From a virus (Duplodnaviria > Caudoviricetes), in IMG/VR virus record IMGVR_UViG_3300015607_004593, positions 32,001 to 96,000 of that record: a stretch of 64,000 bases of DNA; one strand, 5' to 3'. The notes beneath the pieces were generated by a model, which searched no databases, was not told the origin of the DNA, and saw only the letters and a list, made by a program, of their open reading frames with translations. Of the stretch, positions 12,894 through 57,009 are shown one piece after another; the first letter of the stretch is position 1, and each line of letters opens with the position of its first letter. A program made the translations under genes and the position numbers.

Positions 12894-13766
12894 ATGGAGC
12901 GTAAATCATTCAAAGAATTTGCACTTTTAGAAATGGCCTTTCCTGTAGGAAAATCATCTACTGATTTTCAACCAAAAGAAGGAAATTATGTTTCAGCAGA
13001 CATTCAACAAGCCTTCCTAAAAATTGGAAAAAGGGTAGGAAAGGGGTCATCACGAATTGCAATTCAAGTTGAAGTTGAACCTTCACAATTTGAATCAGAA
13101 TTACCCTTAGATATAGTTCCAAATTCTAATGGAAAAATTGATACTGTGTTTAAGATTGCCCTGAGTGCAAAAGGAATATCACAAAATCAAGCGGAAATAA
13201 GAGCATTTAAAACAATGAAGAATAAATTTAAACTTATTCTTCCAATCTTAGATTATGCCTCAAATCACACACCAATAAAGGTTGGCACGGAATCTTTTTC
13301 TCATTGGGTTTAATTTCCCCTTGTTACTCCTTTGAAAAATTCACCAAAGGGATTGAAAGAATTAAACTCTCATTTTATTGAAATGTTTGGAAATATTTCT
13401 AAATTAAAATTGAAAGAAGATTATTTTAAATTTATTTCACCTGTAACTGGAAAAAAGAAACAATTTGGTTTTGAAATATTTGGCTCTCCTTCGTTTATCA
13501 AAGAATTTTCAAAAATAAAACCCCAAGAAGGAGTTATTTCGTCTGAACAAATAGCAAATTTAAAATCACTTTATTCTTTTTGTTCTACAACAGGAATAAC
13601 CCCAACAGATTTTTCAAATCCTGAAAATTGGGGTTTAATAGGAGATAAGTTATATATCTTAGATTATAGATTTGATCAAGATACTTCTGAAATATACAAT
13701 AATACAAATTTAAAGGTAAAGATGAATGTTGCTGCTGATGGCAGTATTACATTAATTAAGAAGTAA
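12894..13766 (+). pseudogene. Protein-kinase-like fold gene with capsid-targeting-like N-terminus, interrupted by one in-frame TAA (13311-13313)
   Basis: ORFs 12894-13313 and 13332-13766 share one frame (SHWV*FPLVTPLKN); GKGSSRIA, VFKIA, GISQNQAE, DFSNPENWG and ILDYRF are kinase-like motifs. Confidence 0.7.
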
Positions 13767-14016
13767 CAGTAGTAGTATCATCATCTTCTTCATTGTTTTG
13801 TAATTTAAATTGTTTTCCTAATTTATTTTGTAATCGTTCTTTTAAAAGTGAGGAAGCAGAAATTATTTCTGCATGTTTTTCTACATACAACGGCCCTTCT
13901 TCAAAAAAGATAGAACCACAATTACCTACTACAAGACAATAAATCTCATATTTTAAAACTAATTTGTTTAAATCGTTATCCCAAACTAATTTACGTTCTA
14001 CATTCGTAGATAACAT
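13756..14016 (-). CDS. hypothetical protein
   Basis: 86-aa ORF with GGGGA RBS right after 43A. Confidence 0.6.
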   Translation of the reverse strand: MLSTNVERKLVWDNDLNKLVLKYEIYCLVVGNCGSIFFEEGPLYVEKHAEIISASSLLKERLQNKLGKQFKLQNNEEDDDTTTVTS

Positions 14017-14031
14017 CTTTTAATATCCCCT

Positions 14032-15531
14032 TTAGAGATTAGAAAGCTCTTGATTAATTTGTTCTAATTCTTTCTCATATTCATTCATCATAGATTTTGC
14101 TTTTTTTCTCTCTGACATAAGATAGAACATTATCTCAGGAATAAACCCCTTTTTATTTTTTGAGAAAAATTGACCGTTTGCCGAAAAGGTTAAATTATTT
14201 TCTTTATGTATTGTCAAGTTATCTAATTCACCTGATAAAATCCTTTCAACAAGATTACAATTTTGAATGTCTTTATCTATAATTCTTCTTTGAATTGTTT
14301 CAGGTGAAATATTTAAAAATTGAATAATTGAAGGATAAAGAGAATTCAAGTCATAAGAAACAACATCATTGTATTTTCCCGGTAATACTTCTTTAACATA
14401 AGCACCCTCAAATGATTCATTCTTTCCTTTTGGAGATAGTTCAGGAACAACAATATTTTTTGAAAAAAGAGCATTATAACAAAGAGAATCCCATGTTTTT
14501 ACAGGAGAAAATACATCTATAAAATTTTGTTTTGCAGTAAAAGAAAAAGACATAGCTAATGAAAACAATCCTAATTTTTTTTCTAATCTATAAACCAAGG
14601 CTACGTCAATAAGATTATAAAGAATAAACTTTGAAGGGTTCTTTTCCCAAAATTCTTGAATAGATTGATACTCGGAATAATCTAATTTATTTTGTCCCAA
14701 TTCAATTTCAGCAATACTATCTAATTTATAACTATCTCTTGGTTTCAGAACAAACTTTTTATAAAGGTCAATATAATCTAAATGAGGATTTCCAAAAAGG
14801 TCAATAACAATTTGTTTTCTACCATTGATCATCTTTTCTTTAACATTGCTTAAATTCCAAAATGAAAGAGAGTTAGCTTCTTTCTGTGAAAGAACCTTAG
14901 CAATTCTATAGTAAAGATAAGGAATATCAAACAATTTAGTATTCCATCCTCCTATAATATCAAATGATTCTTTTTTCCAATAAGATAGAAATTTCCTTAA
15001 TAACTCTTGTTCTGAAGAACAGAATACTAAATTCAAAGAAATAGTTTCATCTTTCCATTCTATTTCTAATTTAGATGAAGAAAGAGCAAAACAAGTAAGT
15101 ATCATTGTCTTTGTTGAAAGACAAGAAATGACTGTTATCATTTCTTTTGCTTCTTCCACAGAAGGAAATCCAAATTTTGATTCACACTCTATATCAAAAA
15201 TACCAATATTGATTAATGATTTATCATACTTTTCTGAAAGTTTCTTTTGATTGATATATTGATTTTCTATAGGAGAATCACCAAGGATTGAAAATTCTTT
15301 TCCAAAATCCCTTTTAAAATCATTCATTTCTGAAAAAGAATTAAAATGAATTTCTTTTGTATTCTCCCCAAAGATAGTTTTAAATTTTGAAGTACCATTC
15401 TTATCTTTTATAAAGAGAGAACAAGAAATATCATCCCCACCTGTTTTATAAGAAAAAGGATATGATTCATCATCATATCCTCTTACATATAATTTATCAA
15501 AATGTCTATCTACAGACGTAAAAAATGCCAT
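14032..15531 (-). CDS. 43: Family B DNA polymerase, N-terminal subunit (gp43A: exonuclease, motif A, first finger helix)
   Basis: FDIECES (ExoI), GWNTKLFDIPY (ExoII), YNLID (ExoIII), SYDLNSLYPSII (motif A), NISPET. Confidence 0.95.
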   Translation of the reverse strand: MAFFTSVDRHFDKLYVRGYDDESYPFSYKTGGDDISCSLFIKDKNGTSKFKTIFGENTKEIHFNSFSEMNDFKRDFGKEFSILGDSPIENQYINQKKLSEKYDKSLINIGIFDIECESKFGFPSVEEAKEMITVISCLSTKTMILTCFALSSSKLEIEWKDETISLNLVFCSSEQELLRKFLSYWKKESFDIIGGWNTKLFDIPYLYYRIAKVLSQKEANSLSFWNLSNVKEKMINGRKQIVIDLFGNPHLDYIDLYKKFVLKPRDSYKLDSIAEIELGQNKLDYSEYQSIQEFWEKNPSKFILYNLIDVALVYRLEKKLGLFSLAMSFSFTAKQNFIDVFSPVKTWDSLCYNALFSKNIVVPELSPKGKNESFEGAYVKEVLPGKYNDVVSYDLNSLYPSIIQFLNISPETIQRRIIDKDIQNCNLVERILSGELDNLTIHKENNLTFSANGQFFSKNKKGFIPEIMFYLMSERKKAKSMMNEYEKELEQINQELSNL

Positions 15532-15572
15532 AAGTTTTATTTGTTTCCTTTTTCTAAAATTATTTTTAATAA

Positions 15573-15794
15573 TTACTCAACTTGAGAAAAACTTTTCTGA
15601 CAATGGGGACAAATTATAAGAGAAAGTTCATCTTCTTTCAATGTTTTTTTCAATTGCCTAGTTTCTTTGATAAGAAGTTTTAGAAACCTTTTTTCTTTTT
15701 CTTTAAGATTCTTTTTATTATTTAAATATTTCCTAATTTTTTTCTTTCTGGATTCTAATTTATCTTTAAAAATTTTAAACATAGCTTTGTTCAT
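15573..15794 (-). CDS. small basic protein with CPHC motif
   Basis: 73-aa ORF, GAGGA RBS. Confidence 0.55.
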   Translation of the reverse strand: MNKAMFKIFKDKLESRKKKIRKYLNNKKNLKEKEKRFLKLLIKETRQLKKTLKEDELSLIICPHCQKSFSQVE

Positions 15795-15884
15795 ATCTTT
15801 CCTCTTTCTTTTTAAAGAAAGTAAACAAATAAAAAGAGTAGAGAAAGAAAATGAAATTCCCTTATTCTCTACTCTTTCTTTATC

Positions 15885-16133
15885 TTAAAGATAAGAAACT
15901 AACTTAGAAGTAAAATCAGTTAGATTGATAACACCGTAAAAACCTTTTTGATGATTTTCTTCTATGAAGTTTCTCACTACTTCATTCTTTGATTCTTCGT
16001 CACCTTCACCAATTTTAACACCTTTGAAAAAAATATCAAACCAATACTTTTTCTTGTTTTCCGTAAGCATCTTAACTCCTTTTTCAACGATTCCATTTAG
16101 AATTTTCGTCATCTTCATCATCATGATTATCAA
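15885..16133 (-). CDS. hypothetical protein (likely start MLTENK at 16070)
   Basis: AGGAG RBS before the internal ATG. Confidence 0.55.
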   Translation of the reverse strand: MIIMMMKMTKILNGIVEKGVKMLTENKKKYWFDIFFKGVKIGEGDEESKNEVVRNFIEENHQKGFYGVINLTDFTSKLVSYL

Positions 16134-16578
16134 ACACAGAAGCTAATGAAGAATAAGGTTTATGATTAGGATTATAAAATCCTAAATGATATTTTGCAAC
16201 TAATCTCCAATGAGATTTTTCTTTTGAAGAAACAATCTTTAAAAGTTTCATGTAATGGTCTTGAACAGGAAACTTATCAGGAGAAGCAATGGTTAATAAA
16301 CCCCAATCCTCTAATAGTTTTGCTATCTGATTTCTCCTATTCTTATCAGTTTCATCTAATGTTGATTCCTTTCCATCTAAAAGAAATAATTCTTTGAAAT
16401 GGGTAATGTATGTTTTTCCATACAAGGATAAAAGATGACATGACTGATAAAGGATTGTCTTTCCTCTTGGAGATACACCTAAACGAGTTAATGTTTCTTT
16501 AACAATTAAAGTTTTACTAGGTTCAACTTTAACTTCTAAAAAGGTATCTAAAATACTTTGTAATTCATTTACGTTCAT
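16084..16578 (-). CDS. regA: Translational repressor RegA
   Basis: KETLTRLGV, LYQSCHLL, YITHFKELFLLDGK, RRNQIAKLLEDWGL. Confidence 0.95.
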   Translation of the reverse strand: MNVNELQSILDTFLEVKVEPSKTLIVKETLTRLGVSPRGKTILYQSCHLLSLYGKTYITHFKELFLLDGKESTLDETDKNRRNQIAKLLEDWGLLTIASPDKFPVQDHYMKLLKIVSSKEKSHWRLVAKYHLGFYNPNHKPYSSLASVFDNHDDEDDENSKWNR

Positions 16579-16662
16579 AGTTACTTTTCTCTCTCTCTTT
16601 TTTCACACAATGAAGTTTTAGAAATTTAATAATTTAAAGATTAATTCTTAAGATAAACATAT

Positions 16663-17094
16663 TTATTTTTTACTTTTTTGCAATCCTCCTTTCATAAAAC
16701 TTAGAGATTGTTTTTCTTCATCTGATAATAAAGAATAAATGACTTCTGATTCTTTTCTTGAAACATTTAATTGTTTTGATATAAGGATTATAGATTCTTG
16801 GGGTGGTGGTGGTTTAAACCACTTTGAATAACGACTTTTCTTTGTTACTCCAAATAGATAAAAATCCATTTGCATTTCTTTATCTAAAAAATTAAACTCA
16901 TTCATTTCATTTGCAAGAAATAAAGTCTCAGGAAACTTAGAGAAGAATTTTCTAACCATAAAAGAATCAAATAAATCTATATCCCCTTCCGTTAATTCTT
17001 TTGTTTTTGAAAGAGCATTGATAACATCAAACAATCCTCTTGGTTTTTCTTCTTTCTCTCCGATTTCATTCTTCTTTACTTTTTTAGGATTCAT
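16663..17094 (-). CDS. 62: Clamp loader small subunit (gp62)
   Basis: LFDVINAL..TK, ANEMN, MQMDFY, RYSKWFK, terminal KGG; lies between 44 and regA. Confidence 0.88.
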   Translation of the reverse strand: MNPKKVKKNEIGEKEEKPRGLFDVINALSKTKELTEGDIDLFDSFMVRKFFSKFPETLFLANEMNEFNFLDKEMQMDFYLFGVTKKSRYSKWFKPPPPQESIILISKQLNVSRKESEVIYSLLSDEEKQSLSFMKGGLQKSKK

Positions 17095-17326
17095 ATTCTA
17101 TCCATGTTGAACGGTCTGAATCTCTATTCTTCTTTTCTAAAATTCTTATATAACACTTAACGACTGTATTGGATTCATGAGGCATCATTACATCTTTCCA
17201 ATAAAAAAATCTTTCTTTTCTTAAAAAGAAATTTAAAATTTTTTGAAAAAAGGTAAATTGTTTCTCTTGAGCAACAAATAAAGTTTTATCACAATTTGAT
17301 ATAATTCTATATTGTTTTCTTTTCAT
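17084..17326 (-). CDS. hypothetical protein inserted between 44 and 62
   Basis: 80-aa ORF overlapping both neighbours. Confidence 0.55.
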   Translation of the reverse strand: MKRKQYRIISNCDKTLFVAQEKQFTFFQKILNFFLRKERFFYWKDVMMPHESNTVVKCYIRILEKKNRDSDRSTWIEYES

Positions 17327-18720: not shown

Positions 18721-18856
18721 TTTTATTTCCTTTTCTTCTTTTCAAAAAAGATAAAAGCATTATATAACAAAAAATAAAAAATCCTAGAATTTTCTAGGAT
18801 TTTTGTTTTTAGAAAACTACCTAACCTTGTTGTTGGTTTAGGTAGTTTCAAAAAAA

Positions 18857-21681: not shown

Positions 21682-21706
21682 CTTTTTTTATTTAGAAAAT
21701 AAAAAT

Positions 21707-24655: not shown

Positions 24656-26116
24656 TCAGTTTCCGGTTTTTATCATCTCTTCATAGCATTGTGTCGAATA
24701 ATTAATAATCCAAGAAAAATATTCATCTTGCCAAAGAGTAGGAGAAGTTGATGCTATCAGAATATAAAGAAACCATTCCATTGAAAGAAGATTTGCTTCT
24801 TCTTTATCACCAAAATAATCATTTCCCATTAATCTAAATTCTATAAACCCTTCACCATTCTTATTGTATTTTGAAAAATTGATAGACATTCTTTTCTGAT
24901 TACTTATAGCCGTCTTTAAAGTATAAATGTAATGTCTTTTTAAAAGGTCATCAATCGTTAAGGGTCGTTTAAATGATCTAGTTAGAGTTTTAATTGAATC
25001 TTTAACACTCACTAATTGAGAAACACAATATTTGTTAAACTGTCGTCCAATTCTTCTTAAGAAAAAATTATCTTGCCCTAAGATAACTAATTTTAAAAAA
25101 TCTATTTCAGAATTTTGTTTTGCATCATTGAAAGAAACTGAAAAATGAACTCCTGTAGATGTATTTGTCTTAGGTTCAAATCCTGCATTTGAAAGGCATT
25201 TCTTTGTTCTAAAGAAAATATCTCTAAATGATTTTGCCGAATATGTTTTTGAAATAATTTCAATAGGAATAAAATTTGATGATGGAATCTGATTTAAAGA
25301 TTCATCTTCTTCTAAAGTCCAAGCATTGTGATAATCTTTTTTAAATTGGATTGATGATTTTCTTTTTGTCCAATTTACCTTTGTATCAAATTCATCCTGA
25401 AGAACAGAAGAAACTTTTGAATAAAAAATATCTTTATCATTTTTATTTTTAGAAGAAGGTGAAAAGGTATCCGTTGATACAGTTTTTAATAGATAACCTT
25501 CATCATCTATATAATAGTTAGAACCATCTAAGAAATTAAAATCTTCTAATAAATCTTCTATTTTAAATTCAGAAGATAAGAATGTTGAGAATGAATATTC
25601 TTCATCATCTCGATATTGTTCTGCAAATTCATCTTGCAATTTTCTTTGAATTTCTAATTTCTTTTTTTGTCGCTTATTTTCATCTTTTTCATTTTCTTTT
25701 TTCAATTCATCATTTACATCATTTATATCAATCATTTCATACATTCTTTCTTGAAACCATTTATCATATTCTCTCTTTAATCCTTTATAAGAAAGATGAT
25801 GATTATTTTCAGGAAAATGACTCATTAAGAAATTTAAATAATTTTCTGGAAATATTTCTTCTAGGTCTATTCTCTCAATGATTTTTTTATTAGATAAAGA
25901 TTCACTATCCTTTAGATAACATTCAAATTCAAATCCTATTTTCATAGAAGAAAGAGAATCAAGAATTTGTTTTGCTATTCCTTCCTGTGATGTAAAGGTA
26001 TTATCTGATATATCAGATGAAAAAGTTTTTCTTAATTGTGATAATTCACCAGTTTTAAAATTTTTATAAATTGGATTTTGTTTTATTTCTAAAAGAAATC
26101 TCTGATAATCTTTCAT
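24656..26116 (-). CDS. Putative amidoligase (COOH-NH2 ligase) family protein with capsid-targeting-like N-terminus
   Basis: IGFEFEC, WTLEEDESL, EIISK, TNTSTGVHFSVS, IEFRLMG; N-terminus MKDYQRFLLE. Confidence 0.8.
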   Translation of the reverse strand: MKDYQRFLLEIKQNPIYKNFKTGELSQLRKTFSSDISDNTFTSQEGIAKQILDSLSSMKIGFEFECYLKDSESLSNKKIIERIDLEEIFPENYLNFLMSHFPENNHHLSYKGLKREYDKWFQERMYEMIDINDVNDELKKENEKDENKRQKKKLEIQRKLQDEFAEQYRDDEEYSFSTFLSSEFKIEDLLEDFNFLDGSNYYIDDEGYLLKTVSTDTFSPSSKNKNDKDIFYSKVSSVLQDEFDTKVNWTKRKSSIQFKKDYHNAWTLEEDESLNQIPSSNFIPIEIISKTYSAKSFRDIFFRTKKCLSNAGFEPKTNTSTGVHFSVSFNDAKQNSEIDFLKLVILGQDNFFLRRIGRQFNKYCVSQLVSVKDSIKTLTRSFKRPLTIDDLLKRHYIYTLKTAISNQKRMSINFSKYNKNGEGFIEFRLMGNDYFGDKEEANLLSMEWFLYILIASTSPTLWQDEYFSWIINYSTQCYEEMIKTGN

Positions 26117-26122
26117 AACTCC

Positions 26123-26467
26123 TTAAGACTCCTTCGTAGAAAGTATCTTTTCAATTTTTTCCCAAACTTCATTGCCATAAGTATTTTTTACAATCATTTG
26201 AAATTGTGCATTTACTAAAAGTTTCTTTGCAAACATTGGAATTAATTTAGGTGGAACTTTCATGATAAATCCATGTCTCTTTGATTGAATAGGATTACCG
26301 TCAACCCATGATTGAATATAAGCAATGAATTCAGAGGGGGATTGAGAAAGATGAACCTCAGTTTCTAAATCAAAGGCTTTAGATTCATTTCTATCTTGGA
26401 CAAGGATATGAGGCATTTCTAATAAAAGACTTTCAAATAAAAATTCTAAGTAATTTGTTTTTTTCAT
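26123..26467 (-). CDS. hypothetical protein with capsid-targeting-like N-terminus
   Basis: MKKTNYLEFLFESLLLEMP; CTAAATA late-type motif at 26545-26539. Confidence 0.65.
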   Translation of the reverse strand: MKKTNYLEFLFESLLLEMPHILVQDRNESKAFDLETEVHLSQSPSEFIAYIQSWVDGNPIQSKRHGFIMKVPPKLIPMFAKKLLVNAQFQMIVKNTYGNEVWEKIEKILSTKES

Positions 26468-26598
26468 AGGTTATATACTTCTTATTTTCTCTTGATTGTT
26501 TATTTTTTATTTTTGAAAGTAAAGTTGAGGAATAAATTTATTTAGAATTTATCTAAGTTTAATTTGTTGAAAAGAAAGAGATTTAAAATATTTAACCT

Positions 26599-28868: not shown

Positions 28869-28943
28869 TGGTAGGCGCGGATGGAATCGAACCATCTTAG
28901 CCGGATTAAAAGTCCGGTACTTCACCGAAAAAGTTTCACGCCC
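28869..28943 (-). tRNA. tRNA-Lys(TTT)
   Basis: GGGCGTG...CCGGA CT TTT AA TCCGG...GGTTCGATTCC...CGCGCCTACCA; encoded CCA. Confidence 0.92.
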
Positions 28944-28948
28944 AAAAT

Positions 28949-29025
28949 TGGCGTCCCAGGAGAGATTTGAACTCCCGACCCACATCTTAGAAGGATGTTG
29001 CTCTATCCAACTGAGCTACTGGGAC
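28949..29025 (-). tRNA. tRNA-Arg(TCT)
   Basis: GTCCCAGTAGCTCAGTTGGATAGAGC, ACATC CT TCT AA GATGT, GTTCAAATC, CCA end. Confidence 0.95.
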
Positions 29026-29054
29026 AATTTTAATTTAAATTATTTATTTCAATT

Positions 29055-29131
29055 TGGTGGCCCTTGTAGGATTTGAACCTACAACCAAAGAATTATGAGT
29101 TCTCTGCTCTAACCACTTGAGCTAAAGGGCC
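29055..29131 (-). tRNA. tRNA with CAT anticodon, most likely tRNA-Ile2 (lysidine, reads AUA)
   Basis: GGCCCTTTAGCTCAAGTGGTTAGAGCA...CTCATAAT...AAGGGCCACCA closely resembles enterobacterial ileX/ileY; paired G1-C72, so not an initiator. Confidence 0.88.
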
Positions 29132-43362: not shown

Positions 43363-45390
43363 TTACATTGAATCAGGAAGTATCGGGCCAATGATAACAT
43401 TCTTCAAAGAATTTTCAATCGTTAAAACATAATAAGCATCATAATGTAAATTTTGAAATGAATAATTACCTGAAGCATCCGATTGTGTTGTAGAAATCTT
43501 TTTATAAGAAGAATCTAAAAGAAGAACATTTACAAATCCTGTAACAACAAGATTTATATAAGTCACACCCTCAATCTTATAAGAACCTAAGACATTAGAA
43601 GAATAGAAAAGATTGTCAATTAATGTTTGGTCTACAGAAGGAACTTTAAAAATACCCGATTGAGACATATAACCGACAAATTGTTGATTGATAGATGATG
43701 TAACTATTGAACCTGCTAAAGGGTCTAAATTAGTAGAAACTCCAATAACAACATCTTTTAATGCTCCCTTTGATGTTTCGTAATCCTCACAAATTAATTG
43801 ATAATAATCTTTCTTTATATCATTGAAAGAAAAATATCCGAGTGAATCAGACCATACCACCCTTGTTATAAATTTATTATACTTCTCTAAAAGAAAAACC
43901 TTTCTTTTAGCAGGAACTCCATGAAGAGTGATATATCCATCAATTAAAACATAAGGTTGTTTCTGATAAGTTGAATCAGAAAGAAGATAACATGAATATC
44001 GCGTATCAATTATTGAATTTAATGGTGTTTTTACGTTTTTCCTTGGATAAGTAAGATTAGAATCATTAATAATAATAGGATAGTTTGTTTTATTGTAAGT
44101 AGGAGGGTTGATTGAAAAAGCCCAATTGTATAATTCTTGATTTTCTTTGTATGAAATAGATTTAGATAAAACTGATACTTCATCAAGTGTGCCCGTTAAA
44201 GGCCCAATAACAAGAGGTTGAGTTGCCGCGTCTGTAATTGAAAATGTTCCATTTAAAAAAGAATCTAAAACTCCATTGTAACAAATAGAAAGTCTTGATG
44301 TTTGAAAGCTTACAGAAATAAATCGAATTACATCATCAGTGAAAGAAATAGAAGATGTAAGTGTATTTCCTGAAATAGTAAATGTAAGAAATCCTGATGA
44401 ATTCAAACCTATAGAAAAGACACCAGATTTTGATAATATCGTTTGTGAATTTGTTGTTGTTTTTAAAAAAAATACAAAAGAAAGAGAGGAGAAAGCATTG
44501 AATGATGCAAAGATTCCTGATGTTGATGTTTGACCACTAAATTGAATTGAATAATCATCAGACCACGAGGGTAAAGGACTTTGAAAAAACGAAGGAGTTC
44601 CACCTGATATTGTAAGTGGATAACTACCCACAGAATCGGCTAAAGTTGTTCCTGATGATTCTGCTAATTGATAATGAGCAATGATAGATGATAAGAATCT
44701 ATTAATCCAAATACCAAAGAATTTTGGATAAGAAGGAAATGCTTGAGTGGGTGGAGTAAAGTTTGAAGTATATCTTACTATTCCACCTTGAGTTACTCTA
44801 AATGAATCAAGATAACCATTTAATTCATAAGTATAATATTTACCAAAAACAAGAATATAAGATGGTAAATCAGTTGATGTTAATGTTCCCGTTAATTCTA
44901 AATTTCCGTCATAATATAGTTTTACTGTTGTTCCTGATTTTGTAACAGTATAAAAATGCCACACATTGTTAGTTACTGTCGTTGTTCCTACTAAAGAAAA
45001 TCCTGCACCACCACCGCCAAATGTTGAATTTCCTGTAAAATTTAGTTTTCCTGTTCCGTTTAGTTGAATATTTAAATTTCTTAATGAACTAGAAGTGCTT
45101 GATGATAACGTTAAAATTTCTGAATATGTTGTAGATGTATTGTAATAAAAAAATTCTATAGTGAAATCACTTGCTTGATTTATAAAAGGAACCCATATTG
45201 ATGTAGTATATGCAGAAAGACCGGCAAATGAAGTAGAACCAAATTTAACTTGTGTATTTGAAAGTTTTCCTGTTCCGACAACAGTTAATGGTTTTAAATT
45301 TATATCATTAAGAATAGTTGTTGAGTTATTACTTCCTTCAAAATTGCAAAGTGTTGTTACTTTATCGTAATAAGAATCTGAAATAGTCAT
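43363..45390 (-). CDS. tail fibre/receptor-binding protein with two LamG (concanavalin A-like) domains and two C-terminal beta-sandwich modules
   Basis: DFTIEFF, NNVWHFY...VKLYYDG, LNGYLDSFRVT...RYTSNFTPPT, YQLAESSGTTLADS, GTLDEV, SDSLGYFSF, SDASGNYSF. Confidence 0.8.
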   Translation of the reverse strand: MTISDSYYDKVTTLCNFEGSNNSTTILNDINLKPLTVVGTGKLSNTQVKFGSTSFAGLSAYTTSIWVPFINQASDFTIEFFYYNTSTTYSEILTLSSSTSSSLRNLNIQLNGTGKLNFTGNSTFGGGGAGFSLVGTTTVTNNVWHFYTVTKSGTTVKLYYDGNLELTGTLTSTDLPSYILVFGKYYTYELNGYLDSFRVTQGGIVRYTSNFTPPTQAFPSYPKFFGIWINRFLSSIIAHYQLAESSGTTLADSVGSYPLTISGGTPSFFQSPLPSWSDDYSIQFSGQTSTSGIFASFNAFSSLSFVFFLKTTTNSQTILSKSGVFSIGLNSSGFLTFTISGNTLTSSISFTDDVIRFISVSFQTSRLSICYNGVLDSFLNGTFSITDAATQPLVIGPLTGTLDEVSVLSKSISYKENQELYNWAFSINPPTYNKTNYPIIINDSNLTYPRKNVKTPLNSIIDTRYSCYLLSDSTYQKQPYVLIDGYITLHGVPAKRKVFLLEKYNKFITRVVWSDSLGYFSFNDIKKDYYQLICEDYETSKGALKDVVIGVSTNLDPLAGSIVTSSINQQFVGYMSQSGIFKVPSVDQTLIDNLFYSSNVLGSYKIEGVTYINLVVTGFVNVLLLDSSYKKISTTQSDASGNYSFQNLHYDAYYVLTIENSLKNVIIGPILPDSM

Positions 45391-45396
45391 TTTCTT

Positions 45397-47076
45397 TTAT
45401 GACCATTGAACAGTTGGAGTTACAAGGTAAAACGTTCCTGTAAAATAAGCGGATGATGACGAATAACTTCTTATGTACATATAAGTATTTCCATCTTTGA
45501 CAAATGATTTATCAAAAGAAGTAAACCACCACTGAGTTTGATTAATTGGCGCATAAAATCCGGGCATCCTACCCCTAACTGAAGTTGTTGGTTGAAATAC
45601 CCAAACATAATCTATATAAGTTCCATTATCAGAAGGGTTAGGAAATGTTGTAGTATTAAGATGCCCTGAAGCGGTTACGTTAGACAAAGACCATCTTGTG
45701 AAATTTGTTTGAGAACCTAGTTGATTATAACTTCTCATAATAAATGAACCAGCAACAACGTTATTATTAGTTGACCAAAATGAGTTATAAGAGATTGAAC
45801 AAAAGTATGTAGAAGATAAAGCCGATGATGTAGAACCTGAAATAGCACAATGATAAGCATCGCCGGGTTTTAATGAAATAATATCTCCAAAGAAATAAGA
45901 ATCAAAAGCCAAATGAGTTTGTAATGATTGAGTATTTCCTTGCCAATTAGGATTTGAACCTGTAAACCAAGATGATCCAAAATAAAATCTTTTTGAGTCT
46001 CCAATGATAAACCAAGGTCTTATAGCCGAAGATGATGTATCTGATTTTACCCAATAAACGTCTTGTCTGTTAATTAAACCCGTTGTGAAATCCGTATAAC
46101 CTTCTAACATTGAAACCGTCATATAATTAGCATTTGAATCATCTACTCTTAGAAACCACTGAGTAGATTCTACATCCGTAGATTTATAAATTGCTTGATT
46201 TGTTCCTGAAAAAGTTTTTGTCCAAGAGGTAGTCAAAGCTCCTGAAGATGCTTTTGCTCCAACAGGAGGATTTCTAAATGACATAGTTCCCGACGCAGGG
46301 GTTGTAGGAGTTCCAGAAACTTCAAAGGTTAAAGTTGTTGAAGTTGGAACAGAAGTAACAACATAAGCATCATTCCAAGTGGTATCATTTGTTACACCAT
46401 AAACTCCAATAATATCTCCAATAGCATATCCATGAGGTGATGCTGTCGTCATTGTTGCTGTTGTTGAAGCTCTTGTTAAAGACGAAATAGAAACATTTGT
46501 CAACGTCATTCCATTAACATGAGTAGATGAAGCAGGGGTTGTTTGAGATGAAACTGTGAAAGTTAAAGTATCTGTCGTTGTGCCGGTAACTACCCAAAAT
46601 CCATTCCAATTAGTATCGTTTGTTACTCCCCAAACATGAATTGTTGAACCATTTGCAATTCCATGAGATTGAGCAGTCAAAGTTGCCGTTGTTCCCGACC
46701 TTGTAATAGATGTTACATTCCTTGAAACAATTGGAGCAGTAAAAACCGCTGGGGTTGTTTGTGTTGTTACTGTAAACGTTAAAGTATCTGAAGTAGGCGT
46801 TGTAAGTACAGTATAAGCTCCATTCCACGTTGGGTTAGCGTCATTTGTGACGCCTGATATTAAAATTACATTTCCCGCAACAAAACCATGTGAAGAACAA
46901 GTTAAGGTTGCCGTTGTACCAGAACGAGTTAATGAAGTAATAATTTTTCCTGAAGATGGTGGAAATCCGCTTAGAAGTAAAGCATCAAAAAGCATAATTC
47001 CTGAATTTACAAGACCGGCTAAAGAAATAACTCTTGTTGAATTAGTTGAATTATAATTATAATTATAGATTGTCAT
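45397..47076 (-). CDS. tail-fibre-like protein with three ~75-aa Thr-rich beta repeats
   Basis: Three units of SLTRSGTTATLT...HG...G..I...GVTND..WNG.Y.V......TLTF.V; C-terminal WTKTFSGTNQAIYKS...FLRVDDS...RGRMPG. Confidence 0.75.
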   Translation of the reverse strand: MTIYNYNYNSTNSTRVISLAGLVNSGIMLFDALLLSGFPPSSGKIITSLTRSGTTATLTCSSHGFVAGNVILISGVTNDANPTWNGAYTVLTTPTSDTLTFTVTTQTTPAVFTAPIVSRNVTSITRSGTTATLTAQSHGIANGSTIHVWGVTNDTNWNGFWVVTGTTTDTLTFTVSSQTTPASSTHVNGMTLTNVSISSLTRASTTATMTTASPHGYAIGDIIGVYGVTNDTTWNDAYVVTSVPTSTTLTFEVSGTPTTPASGTMSFRNPPVGAKASSGALTTSWTKTFSGTNQAIYKSTDVESTQWFLRVDDSNANYMTVSMLEGYTDFTTGLINRQDVYWVKSDTSSSAIRPWFIIGDSKRFYFGSSWFTGSNPNWQGNTQSLQTHLAFDSYFFGDIISLKPGDAYHCAISGSTSSALSSTYFCSISYNSFWSTNNNVVAGSFIMRSYNQLGSQTNFTRWSLSNVTASGHLNTTTFPNPSDNGTYIDYVWVFQPTTSVRGRMPGFYAPINQTQWWFTSFDKSFVKDGNTYMYIRSYSSSSAYFTGTFYLVTPTVQWS

Positions 47077-50358: not shown

Positions 50359-50394
50359 AAGAACAACTTAAGAATTTAAGGATAAATTTTTAAA

Positions 50395-50628: not shown

Positions 50629-50707
50629 ATGATAAAAACGCTAAATAAAACAAATAAAAATTATTTTGGATAAATCTAAAAAACGATAAAATAAGGAAAA
50701 TAAAACA

Positions 50708-51355
50708 ATGGCTGTTACAAAATCTTTTAAGGTTGGAACTACTTCTGTTTCCGGTAATACAACCTCTTCTTTCGATTACACGGTACTTGATACAGATGTT
50801 TTTACATTTTCAAGACGTTGGGATGTTATTGAAGGCGTTCTTTTAAACGAATGGGCACCCAATCTCCTTATTACCGATGCTACAATGACAACTATTAATA
50901 AAGCATCTAAGTCTACCGTCTATGTAGATGCTACTCATGTAGGATTGACAAATGGTGCAGATGGGACTGTTAATTCTGTCGTTTTGAATGATACCAATGT
51001 TCAGACAACAGATTGTGTTGTTCAATTCAATTGGACTGATTCATCAGTTACTACAGCCCTTTCACAAGGAAGATTTTATGCTTATGATAAAGTTAATGTC
51101 AATAACGCACCAGCAAATACAACAGTAGTCGCGTTTGAACGCGCCGCATCTACTTTGAGAAAGAATCGAGTTGGTGGTGACGTTTCTGGAAATGCTTGGA
51201 ACGCTTCGTATGGAGTAGGCGGACGTGCAAATGCTTTATCATTGGCTGACCAAGCCACAGGCTCGGTTCATACCTATTATCTAGGCTTCTCGGCTCGCCC
51301 GAATTCATACGGTTCAAGTCAATTCGGATTAATTTGTGAATTTGATGTTTCTTAA
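50708..51355 (+). CDS. virion structural protein (Thr/Val/Ser-rich, beta-type)
   Basis: CTAAATA at 50641, TAAGGA RBS, composition typical of phage structural proteins, terminator follows. Confidence 0.7.
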   Translation: MAVTKSFKVGTTSVSGNTTSSFDYTVLDTDVFTFSRRWDVIEGVLLNEWAPNLLITDATMTTINKASKSTVYVDATHVGLTNGADGTVNSVVLNDTNVQTTDCVVQFNWTDSSVTTALSQGRFYAYDKVNVNNAPANTTVVAFERAASTLRKNRVGGDVSGNAWNASYGVGGRANALSLADQATGSVHTYYLGFSARPNSYGSSQFGLICEFDVS

Positions 51356-51381
51356 TCCTGATTCTAAAGAGATAGTCTAAT

Positions 51382-51411
51382 AAAAAACCCTCAAAGAAAT
51401 TTGAGGGTTTT
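51382..51411. terminator. bidirectional intrinsic terminator
   Basis: aaaaccctcaaa-gaaa-tttgagggtttt between convergent genes. Confidence 0.8.
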
Positions 51412-51415
51412 ATCT

Positions 51416-53242
51416 TTAGTATTTTATAAAAACTTTGTTTCCGCAATCCCAAACCCTATCAAAACCATGTTCAATCAAATTTTCCCATGCGCTCTTACTT
51501 TCAATAAAATTCTCTAATATATTTTTTAATTTGTGTTTTTGAAAAACAATCCTAGACTTTAATTGAAGATTGTTTGAAGAAGAAGAATTTCTTTGAAAAT
51601 AATAACTATTTGGTGGAGAATCTTTTTCTTCTTTCATTCCAAGTTGATTTTTATACAAAGAACCTGAAGAAAATCTTTTATCTGCATAAGAAATAATACT
51701 TCCTTTTGGTCTTTTTGAAAACAATTTAGATGCTCCACCGACAACAGAAACACCTTTTTTATTACAAAATCTAAGTAATTCCCAATCTATGTTTTTTCTA
51801 TACCTAGATTGTATAAATGTCATAAGACAAACTAATTCTTCTTCATAATAAAGTCCAAAACAACATTGAGAAGGTGTGTATCCTTGCAAATGATTTTCAT
51901 CTAAAAACTTCTTTTCTTCTTCAGAAGAAGAAATTTCTTTTAAGATAGTTTTTCTTGCACTAATTTTAATACTCTTCTTTAAATGATTTTTAATGATAGA
52001 TGATACAATCTCAAGTTTATTAAGAATTTCTATATCCCAAAAATGTAAAAGTTTTATTCCCTTATTTTCACATCTTTTCAATTTATCTAAATGATAATTT
52101 TTATCTTTTCCTGATAATTCTGAGTGCCAAAAAATTCCATTGATTTCTATAGCTAAATTTAAATGAGGAATAAAAATATCTAATTCTAAGGGGTTGATGA
52201 TAGTTCTATCATTAATTAAAAAGGAAACATCTAAAGATTTTAATATATCAATAACAATTTGATGAGGAGTAGATATAGTACCTAATCCAACTAAATCAGG
52301 TCTAAATTTTTTAGTGTAGATGTTGATTGTAGAAGATACCATAAAAGGTAAAAGTTTAAGTTTCACTTCAGACACTTCAGTAAAATCTTTCCACCAATCA
52401 AATTCAGAAATAGTTGTCAAAATTTCCTTCAAATGTCTTTGAGACGTAGAAGAAACCCCATACTTTTCAAAGTTTGTTTTTCTTATTTTTTCTTTTACTT
52501 CTTCAGATTGGAAAGTATATTCAACTCCATATCTTTCAAGATTTGTTTTTCTTGTATTTTCTTTTATTTCTTCTGACTTAGAAACATTTTCAACCCCATA
52601 TCTTTCAAGATTTGTCTTTCTTATTTTTTCTTTTACCTCTTCAGATTGGAAAGTATATTCAACTCCATATCTTTCAAGATTTGTTTTCTTTCCTTTATTT
52701 CTGACTTCTTCAGATTGAAGAACACATTCAACCCCATACTTTTCAAAGTTTGTTTTTCTTATTTTTTCCTTTATTTGTTCTGACTTAGAAACATTTTCAA
52801 CCCCATACCTTTCAAGATTTGTTTTCTTTCCTTTATTTCTAACTTCTTCAGATTGAAGAGAAAATTCAACCCCTCTTTTCTTTAAATTTGTTGCCTTTTG
52901 CTTTTCCATTACCTCTTTAGATTGTGTAGGAAATTCAACCCCTCTTTTCCTTAGATTTGTTTCTTTTTGTTTCTTTAAAAACTCAGGGGTCTTTGAATGA
53001 TATTCAACCCCATATTTTTCTAATTGTGTTCTTTTTGATTTTTCTTTTTTAGATTCTAGTTTTGCAGGATTTTCTACTCCAAATCTTTTTAAGTTTGTTT
53101 GTTTTCTTTTTTCATTTGCAATGAAAATAAGTTTAGGATTTCTTTTCAAACAATTATTTGAACAGAAAAAACTCTTTAAAATATTAGAGAATATACCTTT
53201 TCCATCAATTTCTGAATTACAAGTTTTACATACTACAGGCAT
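51416..53242 (-). CDS. Hef-like free-standing homing endonuclease with N-terminal Zn finger and KxTNLERYGVE repeats
   Basis: CxxC...FCS..C; about ten 23-aa repeats; ELDIFIPHLNLAIEINGIFWHS (PD-(D/E)xK/Vsr-like); FLDENHLQG, ELLRFC, VVGGASKL, ISYADKR, WDCG. Confidence 0.85.
   Translation of the reverse strand: MPVVCKTCNSEIDGKGIFSNILKSFFCSNNCLKRNPKLIFIANEKRKQTNLKRFGVENPAKLESKKEKSKRTQLEKYGVEYHSKTPEFLKKQKETNLRKRGVEFPTQSKEVMEKQKATNLKKRGVEFSLQSEEVRNKGKKTNLERYGVENVSKSEQIKEKIRKTNFEKYGVECVLQSEEVRNKGKKTNLERYGVEYTFQSEEVKEKIRKTNLERYGVENVSKSEEIKENTRKTNLERYGVEYTFQSEEVKEKIRKTNFEKYGVSSTSQRHLKEILTTISEFDWWKDFTEVSEVKLKLLPFMVSSTINIYTKKFRPDLVGLGTISTPHQIVIDILKSLDVSFLINDRTIINPLELDIFIPHLNLAIEINGIFWHSELSGKDKNYHLDKLKRCENKGIKLLHFWDIEILNKLEIVSSIIKNHLKKSIKISARKTILKEISSSEEEKKFLDENHLQGYTPSQCCFGLYYEEELVCLMTFIQSRYRKNIDWELLRFCNKKGVSVVGGASKLFSKRPKGSIISYADKRFSSGSLYKNQLGMKEEKDSPPNSYYFQRNSSSSNNLQLKSRIVFQKHKLKNILENFIESKSAWENLIEHGFDRVWDCGNKVFIKY
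52457..53110. repeat. 69-bp period tandem repeat array inside the endonuclease gene
   Basis: Recurring tcaaccccatatctttcaagatttgtttt-like units at 69-nt spacing, some units near-identical. Confidence 0.85.
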
Positions 53243-53318
53243 TTATTCCTCTCTTATTTTTAATTTATTTCTAAATAATCTTATTATAATTTGAACCAAA
53301 ATAAAATTTTATTTTAAA

Positions 53319-54263
53319 ATGAAAACATTACAAGAATTTATTACAGAATCTAAAAAAAGTACAACTGATTTTAAAATGTACAATTACGTTGTTAGAATTC
53401 TTCATACAAAAAGTTATATCATGCGTTTGTTATCTACCAATAACAAATATGATTATTTTTTAGAAATAGTTAAAGACTCTATAAAGCGTTTCTATCCTAA
53501 ATTGAGATTGATTTCAGATGAAGAAAATACATCTTTAGCAAAGAAGAAATACAGTGAATCTATCGAACTCATTAGAACAGATTACCTTAAACCTATAGAC
53601 AAAGCTAAATTTATCACTACCCTTCCTATGACAAAGGAAGGAACTTATTGTATAGGTTATAAAGGAGATAGCATAGCAAACAAACGTTTTTGTTTTCAGC
53701 ATCCAAATATCAAAACAAGAAACGATGATGGGTCAGTTAATGAAGATGCTTATAATTTAAATTATAGAATTTATCCAGAAGTTGTTGAGAATTTAGAACG
53801 TATGTGTTTTTCTTATTTTTGGTGTAAAGATAAATCATTTAAACCAATAATTCAAACTAAAGAAGAAGATATTTTTGACATATGTTATAAGAGCATAATT
53901 TTAAATGAATTGAACCTTAGTAAAAGTTTTAATTTTGTATCTCTGGATGTAATTGAATATTTCTTTCCTTCACTAAGGAAAGCTAGAATTATTTCTATTC
54001 CTGATTCAATATTTGAAGATGGTAAAAAACTTAAATTAACTGCTTTAAATGATAGATTTTATTTTGAATTTCCATCTTTTTTTTATGCTTATAAATTTCA
54101 AAAGAAAATAAATTTGAATAATAAAGATAAGGAAATTGTTTCTGATTATCTAACAAATTATTTTAAAGATATTTTTGAAAAGGATGGTTTTACTTTTAAA
54201 TACAAAGAGACAGAATTCAACATGAGAGAAAATGTAATTTATGTTACATGGGAGATAAGTTAA
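53319..54263 (+). CDS. putative internal head protein, paralog 1 of 3
   Basis: MKTLQEFITE N-terminus; shares LHTKSY, KRFYP, ISDEENT, FQHPNIKTRN.DGSVNEDAYNLN with next two ORFs; CTAAATA at 53271. Confidence 0.8.
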   Translation: MKTLQEFITESKKSTTDFKMYNYVVRILHTKSYIMRLLSTNNKYDYFLEIVKDSIKRFYPKLRLISDEENTSLAKKKYSESIELIRTDYLKPIDKAKFITTLPMTKEGTYCIGYKGDSIANKRFCFQHPNIKTRNDDGSVNEDAYNLNYRIYPEVVENLERMCFSYFWCKDKSFKPIIQTKEEDIFDICYKSIILNELNLSKSFNFVSLDVIEYFFPSLRKARIISIPDSIFEDGKKLKLTALNDRFYFEFPSFFYAYKFQKKINLNNKDKEIVSDYLTNYFKDIFEKDGFTFKYKETEFNMRENVIYVTWEIS

Positions 54264-54265
54264 AA

Positions 54266-55198
54266 ATGAAAAATTTAAAAGAATTTCTTTTAGAAGCTAA
54301 AAAATCTAATTTGGAAATGTTTAAGTATGCAGTAAGAAAGCTTCATACAAAAAGTTATTTTATACCAATGATGAATTCAAAGGATAGATTTGAAATATTT
54401 TTAGAATTAGCTAAAGAGTGTATGAAGCGTTTCTATCCTAATCTAAAACTTATTTCAGACGAAGAAAATACAGCTTTAGCAAAAAAAGCATACAATGAAT
54501 CTACTGAACAAATTAGAAAAGATTATCTTAGACCTTTAAACCAAAATAATTTTATCACTACCTTTCCTATGACAAAGGAAGGAACTTACTCGTTAGGATT
54601 TATTAACAATAATGTTTTTAGATATTTTTGTTTTCAGCATCCAAATATCAAAACAAGAAATCCTGATGGGTCAGTTAATGAAGATGCTTATAATTTAAAT
54701 TTTAAAGTCTATCCTGAAGTTGCTGAGAATTTAGAACGAATTTTCATTTCTTTCTTTTACTTTCGGGATAACGCATTAAAAAAATCAGAACAGATTATAG
54801 AAGAAGATATTTTTGATAAATGTTATCAATTCCAAACCGTATTACCAATATATGCATTGATTCCATTTAATTATTCTGCTGTTCTTTACTTCTTTCCTTT
54901 TATTAAGGATGCCGACTCAATTATTATTCCTGATAAGATAAATTCTTATAATATTATTAAAAATTTTAAATTAGGTTTATTTTTTAAAACTTTTTATCTT
55001 AATTCATATCTTCATTTATTTTATAGATATAAGATAAATATAAGATTGGATGAGAATAATGAAACTATTATTTCTGAACATTTACAGGAACACTTAAAGA
55101 ATCTCTTTGAAAAAAATGGTTTTAAATTTGAGTTTAAAGAAATTCATTTTAATCTAAAAGACAAAAGTGTTCAACTCTCAGCAAAGATAGATATTTAA
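54266..55198 (+). CDS. putative internal head protein, paralog 2 of 3
   Basis: Start moved to ATG 54266 by identity with paralog 3 (MKNLKEFLLEAKK). Confidence 0.8.
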   Translation: MKNLKEFLLEAKKSNLEMFKYAVRKLHTKSYFIPMMNSKDRFEIFLELAKECMKRFYPNLKLISDEENTALAKKAYNESTEQIRKDYLRPLNQNNFITTFPMTKEGTYSLGFINNNVFRYFCFQHPNIKTRNPDGSVNEDAYNLNFKVYPEVAENLERIFISFFYFRDNALKKSEQIIEEDIFDKCYQFQTVLPIYALIPFNYSAVLYFFPFIKDADSIIIPDKINSYNIIKNFKLGLFFKTFYLNSYLHLFYRYKINIRLDENNETIISEHLQEHLKNLFEKNGFKFEFKEIHFNLKDKSVQLSAKIDI

Positions 55199-55200
55199 AA

Positions 55201-56139
55201 ATGAAAAATTTAAAAGAATTTCTTTTAGAAGCTAAAAAATCTAATTTGGAAATGTATAAGTATGTAGTAAGGATGCTTCATACAAAAAGTTATTTTATAC
55301 CAATGATGAATTCAAAGGATGATAGAATTGAAACGTTTTTAGAATTAGTTAAAGACTGTATGAAGAGGTTTTACCCTAATCTAAAACTTATTTCAGACGA
55401 AGAAAATACAGCTTTAGCAAAAAAAGCATATGAACAATCTACTGAACAAATTAGAAAAGATTATCTTAGACCTTTAAACCAAAATAATTTTATCACTACC
55501 TTTCCTATGACAAAGGCTGGAACTTATTCAATAAAAATTAAAACAACAAAAAATAATTATAATTATATTTATTTTCAATATCCAAATATCAAAACAAGAA
55601 ATCCTGATGGGTCAGTTAATGAAGATGCTTATAATTTAAATTTTAGAATTTATCCTGAAGTTGCTGAGAATTTAGAACGTATGTGCATTTCTTTCTTTTG
55701 GTATCAAGATAAACCACTTAGAACGTTATCTTATCTTAAAGAAGAAGATATTTTTGATACATGCTATCAATTTTATATTATGAAGCAAAGCTATGAAATT
55801 GGGAATGTGTTTACTTATTCAGGCATCAAATATTTCTTTCCTTTTATCAAAGATGCTATTTCAATTATTGTTCCTTTGAAAAATCCTAATAATACTATTA
55901 AAAAATTTAAATTAACTTTATTGAATGGTAGTTTTTATCTTAATTCACACTTTAATTTAATTTATAATTACAAAACCAAAATAGAAATGGATGAAAATAA
56001 TAAAACTATTATTTCTGAACATTTACAGGAACACTTAAAGAATCTCTTTGAAAAAAATGGTTTTAAATTTGAGTTTAAAGAAATTCATTTTAATTTTAAT
56101 GTCAAAGCTATTAAAATTTTATTTAAAGTAGAGATTTAA
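55201..56139 (+). CDS. putative internal head protein, paralog 3 of 3
   Basis: MKNLKEFLLEAKK; long blocks identical to paralog 2 at DNA level. Confidence 0.8.
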   Translation: MKNLKEFLLEAKKSNLEMYKYVVRMLHTKSYFIPMMNSKDDRIETFLELVKDCMKRFYPNLKLISDEENTALAKKAYEQSTEQIRKDYLRPLNQNNFITTFPMTKAGTYSIKIKTTKNNYNYIYFQYPNIKTRNPDGSVNEDAYNLNFRIYPEVAENLERMCISFFWYQDKPLRTLSYLKEEDIFDTCYQFYIMKQSYEIGNVFTYSGIKYFFPFIKDAISIIVPLKNPNNTIKKFKLTLLNGSFYLNSHFNLIYNYKTKIEMDENNKTIISEHLQEHLKNLFEKNGFKFEFKEIHFNFNVKAIKILFKVEI

Positions 56140-56184
56140 AAATGAAAAAACAATGAGATTACTTCCTTTTAAGAAAACAAAAAG

Positions 56185-57009
56185 ATGCTTTCATTTCAAC
56201 AATTCCTAGTAGAAAGAAATCTTCTCGAAAGAGATACTATTCTCTCTATCTCTAATTCTTTGCTGGAAACTCTAAAAACTTCTACGATAAAATTCTATTC
56301 ATTAAAACTACCGGAATTTTTAAGTAAAAGATATTCTGAAGGATTCTTAGCACTCTTAAGAATATCAAAAGAACAATTGAATCAAGAATTTCTTTCTCAA
56401 ATCAATTTAAGCACCAGCAAAGACCTTTTCATAATCTTTTCAAAAGAAAAAAACAAAACTATTCAAGAAAGAGAACATTTTAATATTGAATTAAATTCAT
56501 TGAGACTTTTTGCAAAAAAAGCAGGAAAGGTACATATAGTTAAATCTCTTGATGATAACAAAGATATTTTTATTCATGAGATAGGGCATTATTTTCAATT
56601 ACTAAAAAGTCCTAATTCTAATTCTTTACCATCAGCAGAAGCACATGGTGGTTATTACGACAAATACAATCAATCTTCATCCTCTTCTCTTTCTTATTTC
56701 TTTGACGATGAAGAATTAGATGCTGAATTGTTTTCTATAAAAAATATTATAAAAAATAATCAACTTCATCTTAGTATTCTTCTTCAAAATAACAAAGAAC
56801 TTACATTTGAAAATTATGTAAAAAACTATATCATGAAGATTCCTGAACTTATAAAATTTAAAGATTTATTTGAATTTATTCTTTATCCTGATAGATATAA
56901 GGATAACTCTTGGAAAAAACTTTATAAGAAAATGACAGATAGATTGAAAAAGGTTTTACAATTTGAGTTTACTTTATTTTTAAGAAAACAAAAAAACCCC
57001 TCTATTTAA
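56185..57009 (+). CDS. zincin-like metalloprotease-motif protein with capsid-targeting-like N-terminus
   Basis: MLSFQQFLVE; FIHEIGHYFQ (HExxH) and downstream Y....EELDA third-ligand motif. Confidence 0.7.
   Translation: MLSFQQFLVERNLLERDTILSISNSLLETLKTSTIKFYSLKLPEFLSKRYSEGFLALLRISKEQLNQEFLSQINLSTSKDLFIIFSKEKNKTIQEREHFNIELNSLRLFAKKAGKVHIVKSLDDNKDIFIHEIGHYFQLLKSPNSNSLPSAEAHGGYYDKYNQSSSSSLSYFFDDEELDAELFSIKNIIKNNQLHLSILLQNNKELTFENYVKNYIMKIPELIKFKDLFEFILYPDRYKDNSWKKLYKKMTDRLKKVLQFEFTLFLRKQKNPSI

Follow-up and report, generated by a model that had tools for sequence, protein, structure and literature searches.

Several genes in one stretch of a tailed-phage genome begin with nearly the same ten or so residues and otherwise differ from one another, which raises the question of what this shared N-terminus is for. 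The stretch, referred to below as the window, is 64,000 nucleotides long and corresponds to bases 32001-96000 of the 221,970-bp IMG/VR record IMGVR_UViG_3300015607_004593, which CheckV rates as complete. A first-pass annotation of the window had read seven of these N-termini as capsid-targeting sequences like those of the internal proteins of phage T4, removed by the prohead protease before the proteins are injected with the DNA. We find that T4-type capsid-targeting tags, borne by late-expressed proteins that are packaged, cleaved and injected as cargo, are the best explanation of the data, and we regard this explanation as likely. The phage thus probably carries and injects a large set of proteins; packaging, cleavage, injection and the cargo role are what we infer from the sequence.

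Unrelated proteins share an N-terminal tag

All seven N-termini stand in the sequence exactly as first annotated, and the late-type motif reported upstream of each gene cluster was found at all three places (Table 1). The seven genes had been described as dispersed. Those at 53319, 54266 and 55201 are tandem paralogues (47-70% identity), so the window contains five independent families, not seven. When the first 16 residues were removed and the remainders compared pairwise, all tagged pairs were unrelated except this trio. For paralogue 2, the longest open reading frame starts at 54248, yet the tag methionine at 54266 has a GGGAG Shine-Dalgarno sequence upstream.

The enrichment of the tag was assessed with a strict motif in the T4 register, M..[YFLW]..[FY][ILV].E, fixed beforehand from T4 mutagenesis (positions 4, 7, 8 and 10). 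It occurs at 7 N-termini, compared with 0.12 expected from internal rates and 0.10 from shuffling of residues 2-14, and at 0 of 721 internal Met positions; counting 5 independent hits, the Poisson P is ~2e-7. A looser core motif is 11-fold enriched within the first 25 residues (P = 6e-8).

The whole-genome motif scan that had been proposed as a check revealed further tags outside the window, bringing the count to 13 clean tags (7 in the window and 6 outside) and 2 partial ones, plus a gp67-like core protein with a tag-like start. About 15 mostly unrelated genes carry the tag, and by sequence comparison at least 11 independent families share it alone. The tags lie at the very N-terminus, beginning with the initiator Met, are 10-13 residues long and follow the consensus M-K-x-F-K-E-F-[LI]-x-E. 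The element [YFL]-x-x-F is in register in the 7 window proteins and 8 proteins outside, some of which have 2-3 extra leading residues. The residues that determine processing (L/I at P3, Glu at P1) are found in the 7 window proteins and 6 outside, the exceptions being those at genome positions 100435 and 204849.

Resemblance by chance or paralogy alone would be the simplest account, and three of the seven window genes are paralogues. This account is already contradicted by the enrichment (seven strict hits where 0.1 would be expected) and by the pairwise unrelatedness of families, five in the window, that have only the tag in common; we consider its probability negligible. A narrow DNA pattern for the tag recovers ipI, ipII and ipIII in T4, finds about one gene-start tag in each of two distant T4-like IMG/VR genomes, and finds zero in Campylobacter phage CP220. 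The genome of CP220 likewise has a low G+C content. In Vibrio phage phiKT1024, a 61-residue open reading frame (7488-7673 of the stretch examined) has the tag-like start MSKRGFKKFLEEE, and the nucleotidyltransferase-like and ligase-like homologues encoded there, described below, are untagged.

The phage is a distant relative of T4

T4-like genes within the window include a DNA polymerase piece, UvsX, a gp41-like helicase, the gp44 clamp loader and baseplate proteins. In the rest of the genome, Pfam models identify, in T4 order, Gp23, the T4_CASP scaffold (gp22; E = 3e-40), the Peptidase_S77 prohead protease (gp21; E = 2e-31) and Portal_T4 (gp20). A homologue of the gp55 late sigma factor is also encoded (E = 5e-14), as are gp13-, gp14- and gp15-like neck and tail genes. 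Identity to T4 amounts to ~42% for gp23 and 39% for gp21, and the G+C content is ~27%. No protein in the phage or IMG/VR collections exceeds 49% identity to the capsid protein, so there is no close sister genome for an analysis of synteny, and a nucleotide search of cultured phages returned no match for positions 43363-47076 (tail-region genes) or for the four-gene tag cluster at 53200-57100. Judged by these comparisons, the phage is a distant, uncultured relative of T4.

The polymerase appears to be split, since a 499-residue open reading frame at window 14032-15531(-) covers only the N-terminal half of a T4-type DNA polymerase (phrog_262 positions 7-495 of 856). Three clustered tRNA genes (Lys-UUU, Arg-UCU and Met-CAU) lie at window 28869-29131(-), and a fourth, Gly-UCC, at genome 104636, after a tagged gene for a 551-residue protein.

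The tag resembles the T4 capsid-targeting sequence and its cut site

In T4, ipII and ipIII start with MKTYQEFIAE and ipI with MKTFKEF...ITE (read from NC_000866). Three proteins of the present phage also start with MKTFKEF, identical to the start of IPI, and a fourth with MKSFKEF. Mutagenesis in T4 assigned a role in targeting to positions 4 and 7 and one in processing to positions 8 and 10 (PMC9026906). The conserved positions of the tags coincide with these functional ones: Y/F/L at 4, F at 7, L/I at 8 and E at 10. More generally, the tags resemble the N-terminal 10-19-residue sequences of IPI, IPII and IPIII, in which position 4 is aromatic or hydrophobic, position 7 is Phe, position 8 is L/I and the cut lies at a Glu (Mullaney & Black 1996, as given in PMC9026906 and PMC3012670).

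The end of the tag, F-[LI]-x-E, is like the capsid maturation site FLTE/A (here and below, a slash marks the cut). The capsid protein has TFLTE/AAP where T4 gp23 has SFLTE/AEIGG, the cut position being assigned by homology. As FLTE/A is common to both phages, the preferred site of the protease appears to be conserved, which fits the end of the tag. The gp21 homologue itself starts with MKLIVE, paralleling the LIE site noted for T4 gp21.

The tag is also kept in metagenomic orthologues of three cargo proteins, at 32-65% identity and with varying residues. Homologues of the amidoligase-like protein (P0002 and P0003; 36% and 32% identity) start with ..IKFTEFLNKSSHLITE/LVQN and MIQFKQYLTE/IKQN, respectively. 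All four orthologues of the HExxH protein (P0008-P0011; 41-46% identity) have a tag ending in E/RNLL, for example MKTTTYLEFLQE/RNLL and MKTFKTFLLQE/RNLL, and the YLEFLxE form of the tag, seen in the 114-residue window protein, also heads P0008-P0010. Orthologues of the kinase-like protein (P0012-P0015) start with MKTFKQFLNE/MALP, MKKFKEFLLE/MALP or MKIKSFIQFLNE/MPLP.

A different reading of these N-termini is that they are no packaging signal at all and represent an element, favored in an AT-rich genome, that acts in translation initiation or in the mRNA, or else a cassette that brings genes behind late promoters by recombination, with only some or none of the proteins packaged. MK-rich, A-rich starts are common in AT-rich genomes, promoter-plus-leader cassettes could spread via recombination, and T4 gp61.1, discussed below, has the same start and is not known as a virion protein. 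Against this stands the variation of the codons within the tag, which is synonymous (TTT/TTC, GAA/GAG and four Leu codons) or, as with Y/F/L at position 4, conservative; conservation at the level of residue properties with synonymous codon variation argues for selection on the peptide and against an element acting at the DNA or RNA level. The agreement of the tag end with the F-L-x-E of the capsid maturation site, the retention of the tag in orthologues at 32-65% identity, and the lack of such starts in the low-G+C phage CP220 count against it too. We consider this reading improbable.

Capsid targeting is further favored by the behavior of the tag as an extension. In the 365-residue protein encoded at genome 100435, residue 13 (MGGN) aligns with residue 1 (MGGN) of the phiKT1024 homologue, and in the 551-residue protein residue 21 aligns with residue 6. 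The CP220 homologue likewise has no N-terminal extension. The CP220 and phiKT1024 homologues thus start directly at the conserved domain (MGGN..., MSKQHLDISI...), whereas the proteins here have 12-20 extra residues that hold the tag. These alignments indicate a tag that is separable from the protein behind it and was grafted onto proteins which other phages encode untagged.

The tagged genes have a probable late-expression context

For the T4-like phage Aeh1, CTAAATA has been published as the consensus of late promoters (PMC1524935). In the present genome, heptamers of the form xTAAATA are 5-10-fold depleted: CTAAATA occurs 13 times (131 expected), TATAAATA 8 times (117 expected) and TTAAATA 74 times (328 expected). 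Within the window, CTAAATA is found at 21689, 26539, 34143, 50641 and 53271, that is, 5 times compared with 23.5 in dinucleotide-preserving shuffles. Of the 13 CTAAATA sites, eight lie between genes and are oriented toward a gene 48-149 nucleotides downstream. The motif precedes gp23, the 26467->24656 and 53319->57009 cassettes of tagged genes, and an operon with uvsW-like helicase and gp13-like neck genes that ends in three tagged genes (genome 100435-104617; 365, 466 and 551 residues). The extended form CTAAATAAAT at 26539-26545(-) is identical to that upstream of the gp23 gene. CTAAATA sites also aim at uncharacterised late genes at window 50708 (215 residues) and 33415 (218 residues, phrog_4243).

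Among the first genes of tag units, 6 of 8 have NTAAATA at most 100 nucleotides upstream, compared with 39 of 256 other genes (P = 4e-4). The remaining tagged genes follow gp13-like or gp14/gp15-like genes, a 395-residue tagged protein being encoded at the end of the gp14/gp15 operon. Both multigene cassettes in the window are insulated. The minus-strand cassette runs from a terminator at 26798-26768(-) through its promoter and two genes to a second terminator, while the plus-strand cassette extends from its promoter over four genes to a bidirectional terminator (Table 1). Immediately upstream of the four-gene cassette, and divergent from it, is a gene for a 608-residue homing/HNH endonuclease-like protein at window 51416-53242(-). 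Together, the promoter motifs and the operon positions suggest that the tagged genes are expressed late.

From these features, we propose the following route. The tagged genes would be transcribed late, via gp55-dependent NTAAATA promoters or at the tail end of late structural operons. By binding to the gp22/gp21 scaffolding core as it forms, the tag would bring the protein into the prohead. The gp21-type serine protease, which would also cut the major capsid protein at FLTE/A, would then cleave off the tag behind the Glu of [LI]-x-E. The mature proteins would remain in the head beside the DNA and exit with it at infection.

Table 1. Tagged genes, tags and associated signals. Window positions count from the first base of the window and genome positions from that of the full record.
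Feature	Position	Strand	Details
TTAAATA late-promoter-like motif	window 12842..12848	+	45 nucleotides upstream of the 12894 gene
Head-loading tag MERKSFKEFALLE	window 12894..12932	+	predicted cut after Glu13 (E/MAFP)
Kinase-like cargo gene	window 12894..13766	+	one frame, in-frame TAA at 13311-13313
CTAAATA late-promoter-like motif	window 26539..26545	-	heads two-gene cassette
Cargo gene, 114 residues, no assigned function	window 26123..26467	-	tag MKKTNYLEFLFE at 26432-26467
Amidoligase-like cargo gene, 486 residues	window 24656..26116	-	tag MKDYQRFLLE at 26087-26116; terminator 24616-24592(-)
CTAAATA late-promoter-like motif	window 53271..53277	+	heads four-gene cassette; 41 nucleotides upstream of ATG at 53319
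Cargo gene, 314 residues, paralogue 1	window 53319..54263	+	tag MKTLQEFITE at 53319-53348
Cargo gene, 310 residues, paralogue 2	window 54266..55198	+	tag MKNLKEFLLE at 54266-54295
Cargo gene, 312 residues, paralogue 3	window 55201..56139	+	tag MKNLKEFLLE at 55201-55230
HExxH (zincin-like) cargo gene, 274 residues	window 56185..57009	+	tag MLSFQQFLVE at 56185-56214
Bidirectional intrinsic terminator	window 56991..57021	.	13-bp stem; closes four-gene cassette
Clean tag	genome 24972	-	MKTFKEFILLSEE
Clean tag	genome 101557	+	MIIKGFKEFLTE
Clean tag	genome 102962	+	MKTFKEFLIE
Clean tag	genome 176794	-	MKTFKVFLLE
Clean tag	genome 200751	+	MSLYKQFKEFLNE
Clean tag	genome 206986	-	MMTFKQFLILE
Partial tag	genome 100435	+	MKSFKEFKTLLLMGG; without proper [LI]-x-E
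Partial tag	genome 204849	-	MKTFKEFYDKDIE; without proper [LI]-x-E
Tag-like start ..LKDFLNE	between portal and protease genes, head operon		62-residue gp67-like protein

Predicted cargo proteins carry conserved, enzyme-like motifs

The first-pass annotation described the tagged proteins as protein-modifying enzymes. The motifs behind that description are conserved, and the class labels went further than the evidence: the HExxH protein has no fold or family match, the kinase assignment is by motif and the gene contains a nonsense codon, and the amidoligase assignment fails the Pfam hidden Markov model. Pfam and PHROG scans of the seven window proteins gave no match, apart from one marginal PHROG of no assigned function, and PDB sequence searches with three profiles and two single proteins gave nothing meaningful. 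A tblastn search of phages found no match for the HExxH protein or for the 466- and 395-residue proteins, and the viral and metagenome contigs searched contained no relatives of the 314-residue, 486-residue and HExxH families.

All five sequences compared for the 274-residue HExxH protein keep the motif HE[IL]GH (H131, E132 and H135; HEIGH here), H154 and the acidic block DDEELDAE unchanged. The protein has no Pfam, PHROG or PDB match, and its structural neighbors are weak (SprT/M48-like, template modelling (TM) score ~0.3).

The kinase-like gene reads in a single frame to 13766, interrupted by one in-frame TAA. All four intact homologues (272-289 residues) have Gln at this position (HWVQFPL), and the TAA looks like a single CAA-to-TAA change. 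A suppressor tRNA was considered and rejected, the tRNAs of the genome being those for Lys, Arg, Met and Gly only. Given the Gln in the homologues and the lack of a suppressor, the TAA would be either a nonsense allele or an assembly variant. Five sequences share a Gly-rich loop (GKGSSRIA), VFKIAL, QNQAEI, DxSNPxNWG and ILDYGFD, in the order in which a kinase would have its Gly-rich loop, beta3 Lys, alphaC Glu, catalytic D..N and DFG-like motif; a small kinase-like fold would suit them. The protein matched no Pfam or PDB profile, and its AlphaFold2 model is poor (predicted local distance difference test score, pLDDT, of 45).

For the 486-residue protein, 29 of the 30 nearest ESM Atlas clusters carry Amidoligase_2 (score 0.92, TM 0.52). 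The Amidoligase_2 model (PF12224) matched neither the protein and its homologues in hmmscan, at E of at most 10, nor any of the six frames of the genome. The AlphaFold2 model of the protein is unusable (pLDDT 44). The family conserves GFEFE, TGxHFSxSF and FIEFR, which look to us compatible with an amidoligase. Because the Pfam model fails, the label leans solely on the ESM Atlas similarity and is correspondingly weaker.

The 114-residue protein has no Pfam or PHROG match and no homologue outside the genome. The triplicated family of 310-314 residues has neither a recognisable function nor an outside homologue: an exhaustive HMMER search over 1.8 billion representatives returned only paralogue 2 of the present genome (P0004) and low-complexity hits. 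Among the three paralogues, the N-terminal two-thirds are conserved and the C-terminal third is the most divergent.

Outside the window, the 365-residue protein contains a GS...GDID motif, which we take to be typical of Pol-beta-type nucleotidyltransferases, and the 551-residue protein contains a KTDG motif, presumably ligase-type, and a weakly cytidylyltransferase-like C-terminus. Both have homologues at 28-29% identity over nearly their full length (CP220 gp026 / phiKT1024 UOK16974, UOK16979), and the two may form an RNA-repair pair. The pair is also found together, untagged, in phiKT1024, and a homologue of the 551-residue protein occurs in Campylobacter phages as well.

The tagged proteins could also load into the prohead core and act there, as assembly or scaffold parts or as DNA-condensing filler that is degraded or retained. 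In T4, the internal proteins are constituents of the scaffolding core themselves and gp21 cleaves gp22, gp67 and gp68; here, the 62-residue gp67-like protein of the head operon has a tag-like start, and most tagged proteins are basic (isoelectric point ~9). A role confined to the head is harder to reconcile with the conservation of catalytic-looking motifs (HExxH and the kinase-like D..N/DYG; outside the window, GS..DID and KxDG). Two of the cargo proteins have untagged homologues in other phages, where they presumably work outside the head, and tandem triplication followed by divergence suits conflict-driven cargo better than structural filler. We therefore regard a purely internal role as unlikely, and favor injected cargo. 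By analogy with IPI*, IPIII and Alt of T4, this cargo likely serves first-response host takeover or anti-defence.

Comparison with known head-packaged proteins

The set of tagged proteins had been called apparently uncharacterised. As a class it is not: the concept of diverse internal proteins that are alike in their tag only and counter host defences is already an established one in T-even phages (PMC3012670, PMC9026906). IPI* blocks GmrSD, and T4 requires IPIII on E. coli ECOR17. As in T4, the genome encodes a gp21-type protease and a gp22 scaffold and has late-promoter-like motifs, and, as in T-even phages, the proteins are mutually unrelated beyond the tag. Unlike in T4, which has three classic internal proteins, there are ~13-15 tagged genes, and no cargo protein here is homologous to IPI, IPII or IPIII.

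Several points weigh against capsid targeting and injection. The phage is known from a metagenomic assembly, and tags, packaging and injection are read from its sequence alone. The candidates at genome 100435 and 204849 are without a proper [LI]-x-E; the former could start at Met13, and the latter has no late-promoter motif. Of the three motifs in the window, the TTAAATA at 12842 is the weakest, being a weak and common variant. T4 gp61.1, a 54-residue hypothetical protein (NC_000866 18966-19130, beside the primase gene), starts with MKTFKEFIKE and is not annotated as a virion or internal protein. Since it carries a full tag-like start without a virion annotation, the motif argues strongly for packaging without proving it; either gp61.1 is a small head protein that has escaped recognition, or it warns against a motif-only reading. 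Finally, the T4 internal proteins are small (95-193 residues), whereas most of the proteins here have 270-550 residues and several look like enzymes.

With regard to size, T4 also packages the much larger Alt protein. Alt, an ADP-ribosyltransferase that is packaged in the head and injected, provides a precedent for enzymatic cargo: gp21 removes its propeptides, which lie at both termini, and this large enzyme is delivered together with the DNA (PMC9026906). No ADP-ribosyltransferase domain was detected in the tagged proteins here. The giant phages SPN3US and phiKZ likewise have many head-packaged proteins that are processed by the prohead protease and ejected (PMC5694885, PMC7411985); they belong to different lineages, and the likeness is one of description.

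Taken together, the T4-type tag, the head machinery, the FLTE/A cut site, the conservation in orthologues, the add-on nature of the tag and the late-promoter context all favor capsid targeting, and the parts of the first-pass annotation that overreached are the cargo labels and the claim of an uncharacterised set. As far as sequence comparison goes, the system fits the known T-even kind and differs in its scale, the size and enzyme-like motifs of its cargo, its distance from T4 and the grafting of the tag. A bolder possibility, which we put forward only tentatively, is that the phage has made the head-loading tag a general enzyme delivery system, grafting it onto ordinary cytoplasmic enzymes of phages (a Pol-beta-type nucleotidyltransferase and an RNA-ligase-like/cytidylyltransferase-like protein, both untagged in Vibrio and Campylobacter phages) and onto protein-modifying enzymes of amidoligase-, kinase- and zincin-like type. 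RNA-repair and host-modifying activities might then enter together with the DNA, ahead of any phage gene expression, as a pre-emptive answer to first-response defences such as anticodon nucleases.

Implications

Tagged, injected internal proteins are an established concept in T-even phages. What this case adds is scale and a particular set of cargo; the principle is not new. The tag is near-identical to that of T4 despite head-protein identities of ~40%, which speaks for a conserved receptor in the scaffolding core and makes T4 a possible surrogate for testing such tags. About a dozen proteins of no known function, some of them enzymes that are untagged elsewhere, are nominated as candidates for first-response anti-defence or host takeover. 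If the tags behave as their T4 counterparts do, the proteins that an uncultured phage packages and injects could be read straight from its sequence.

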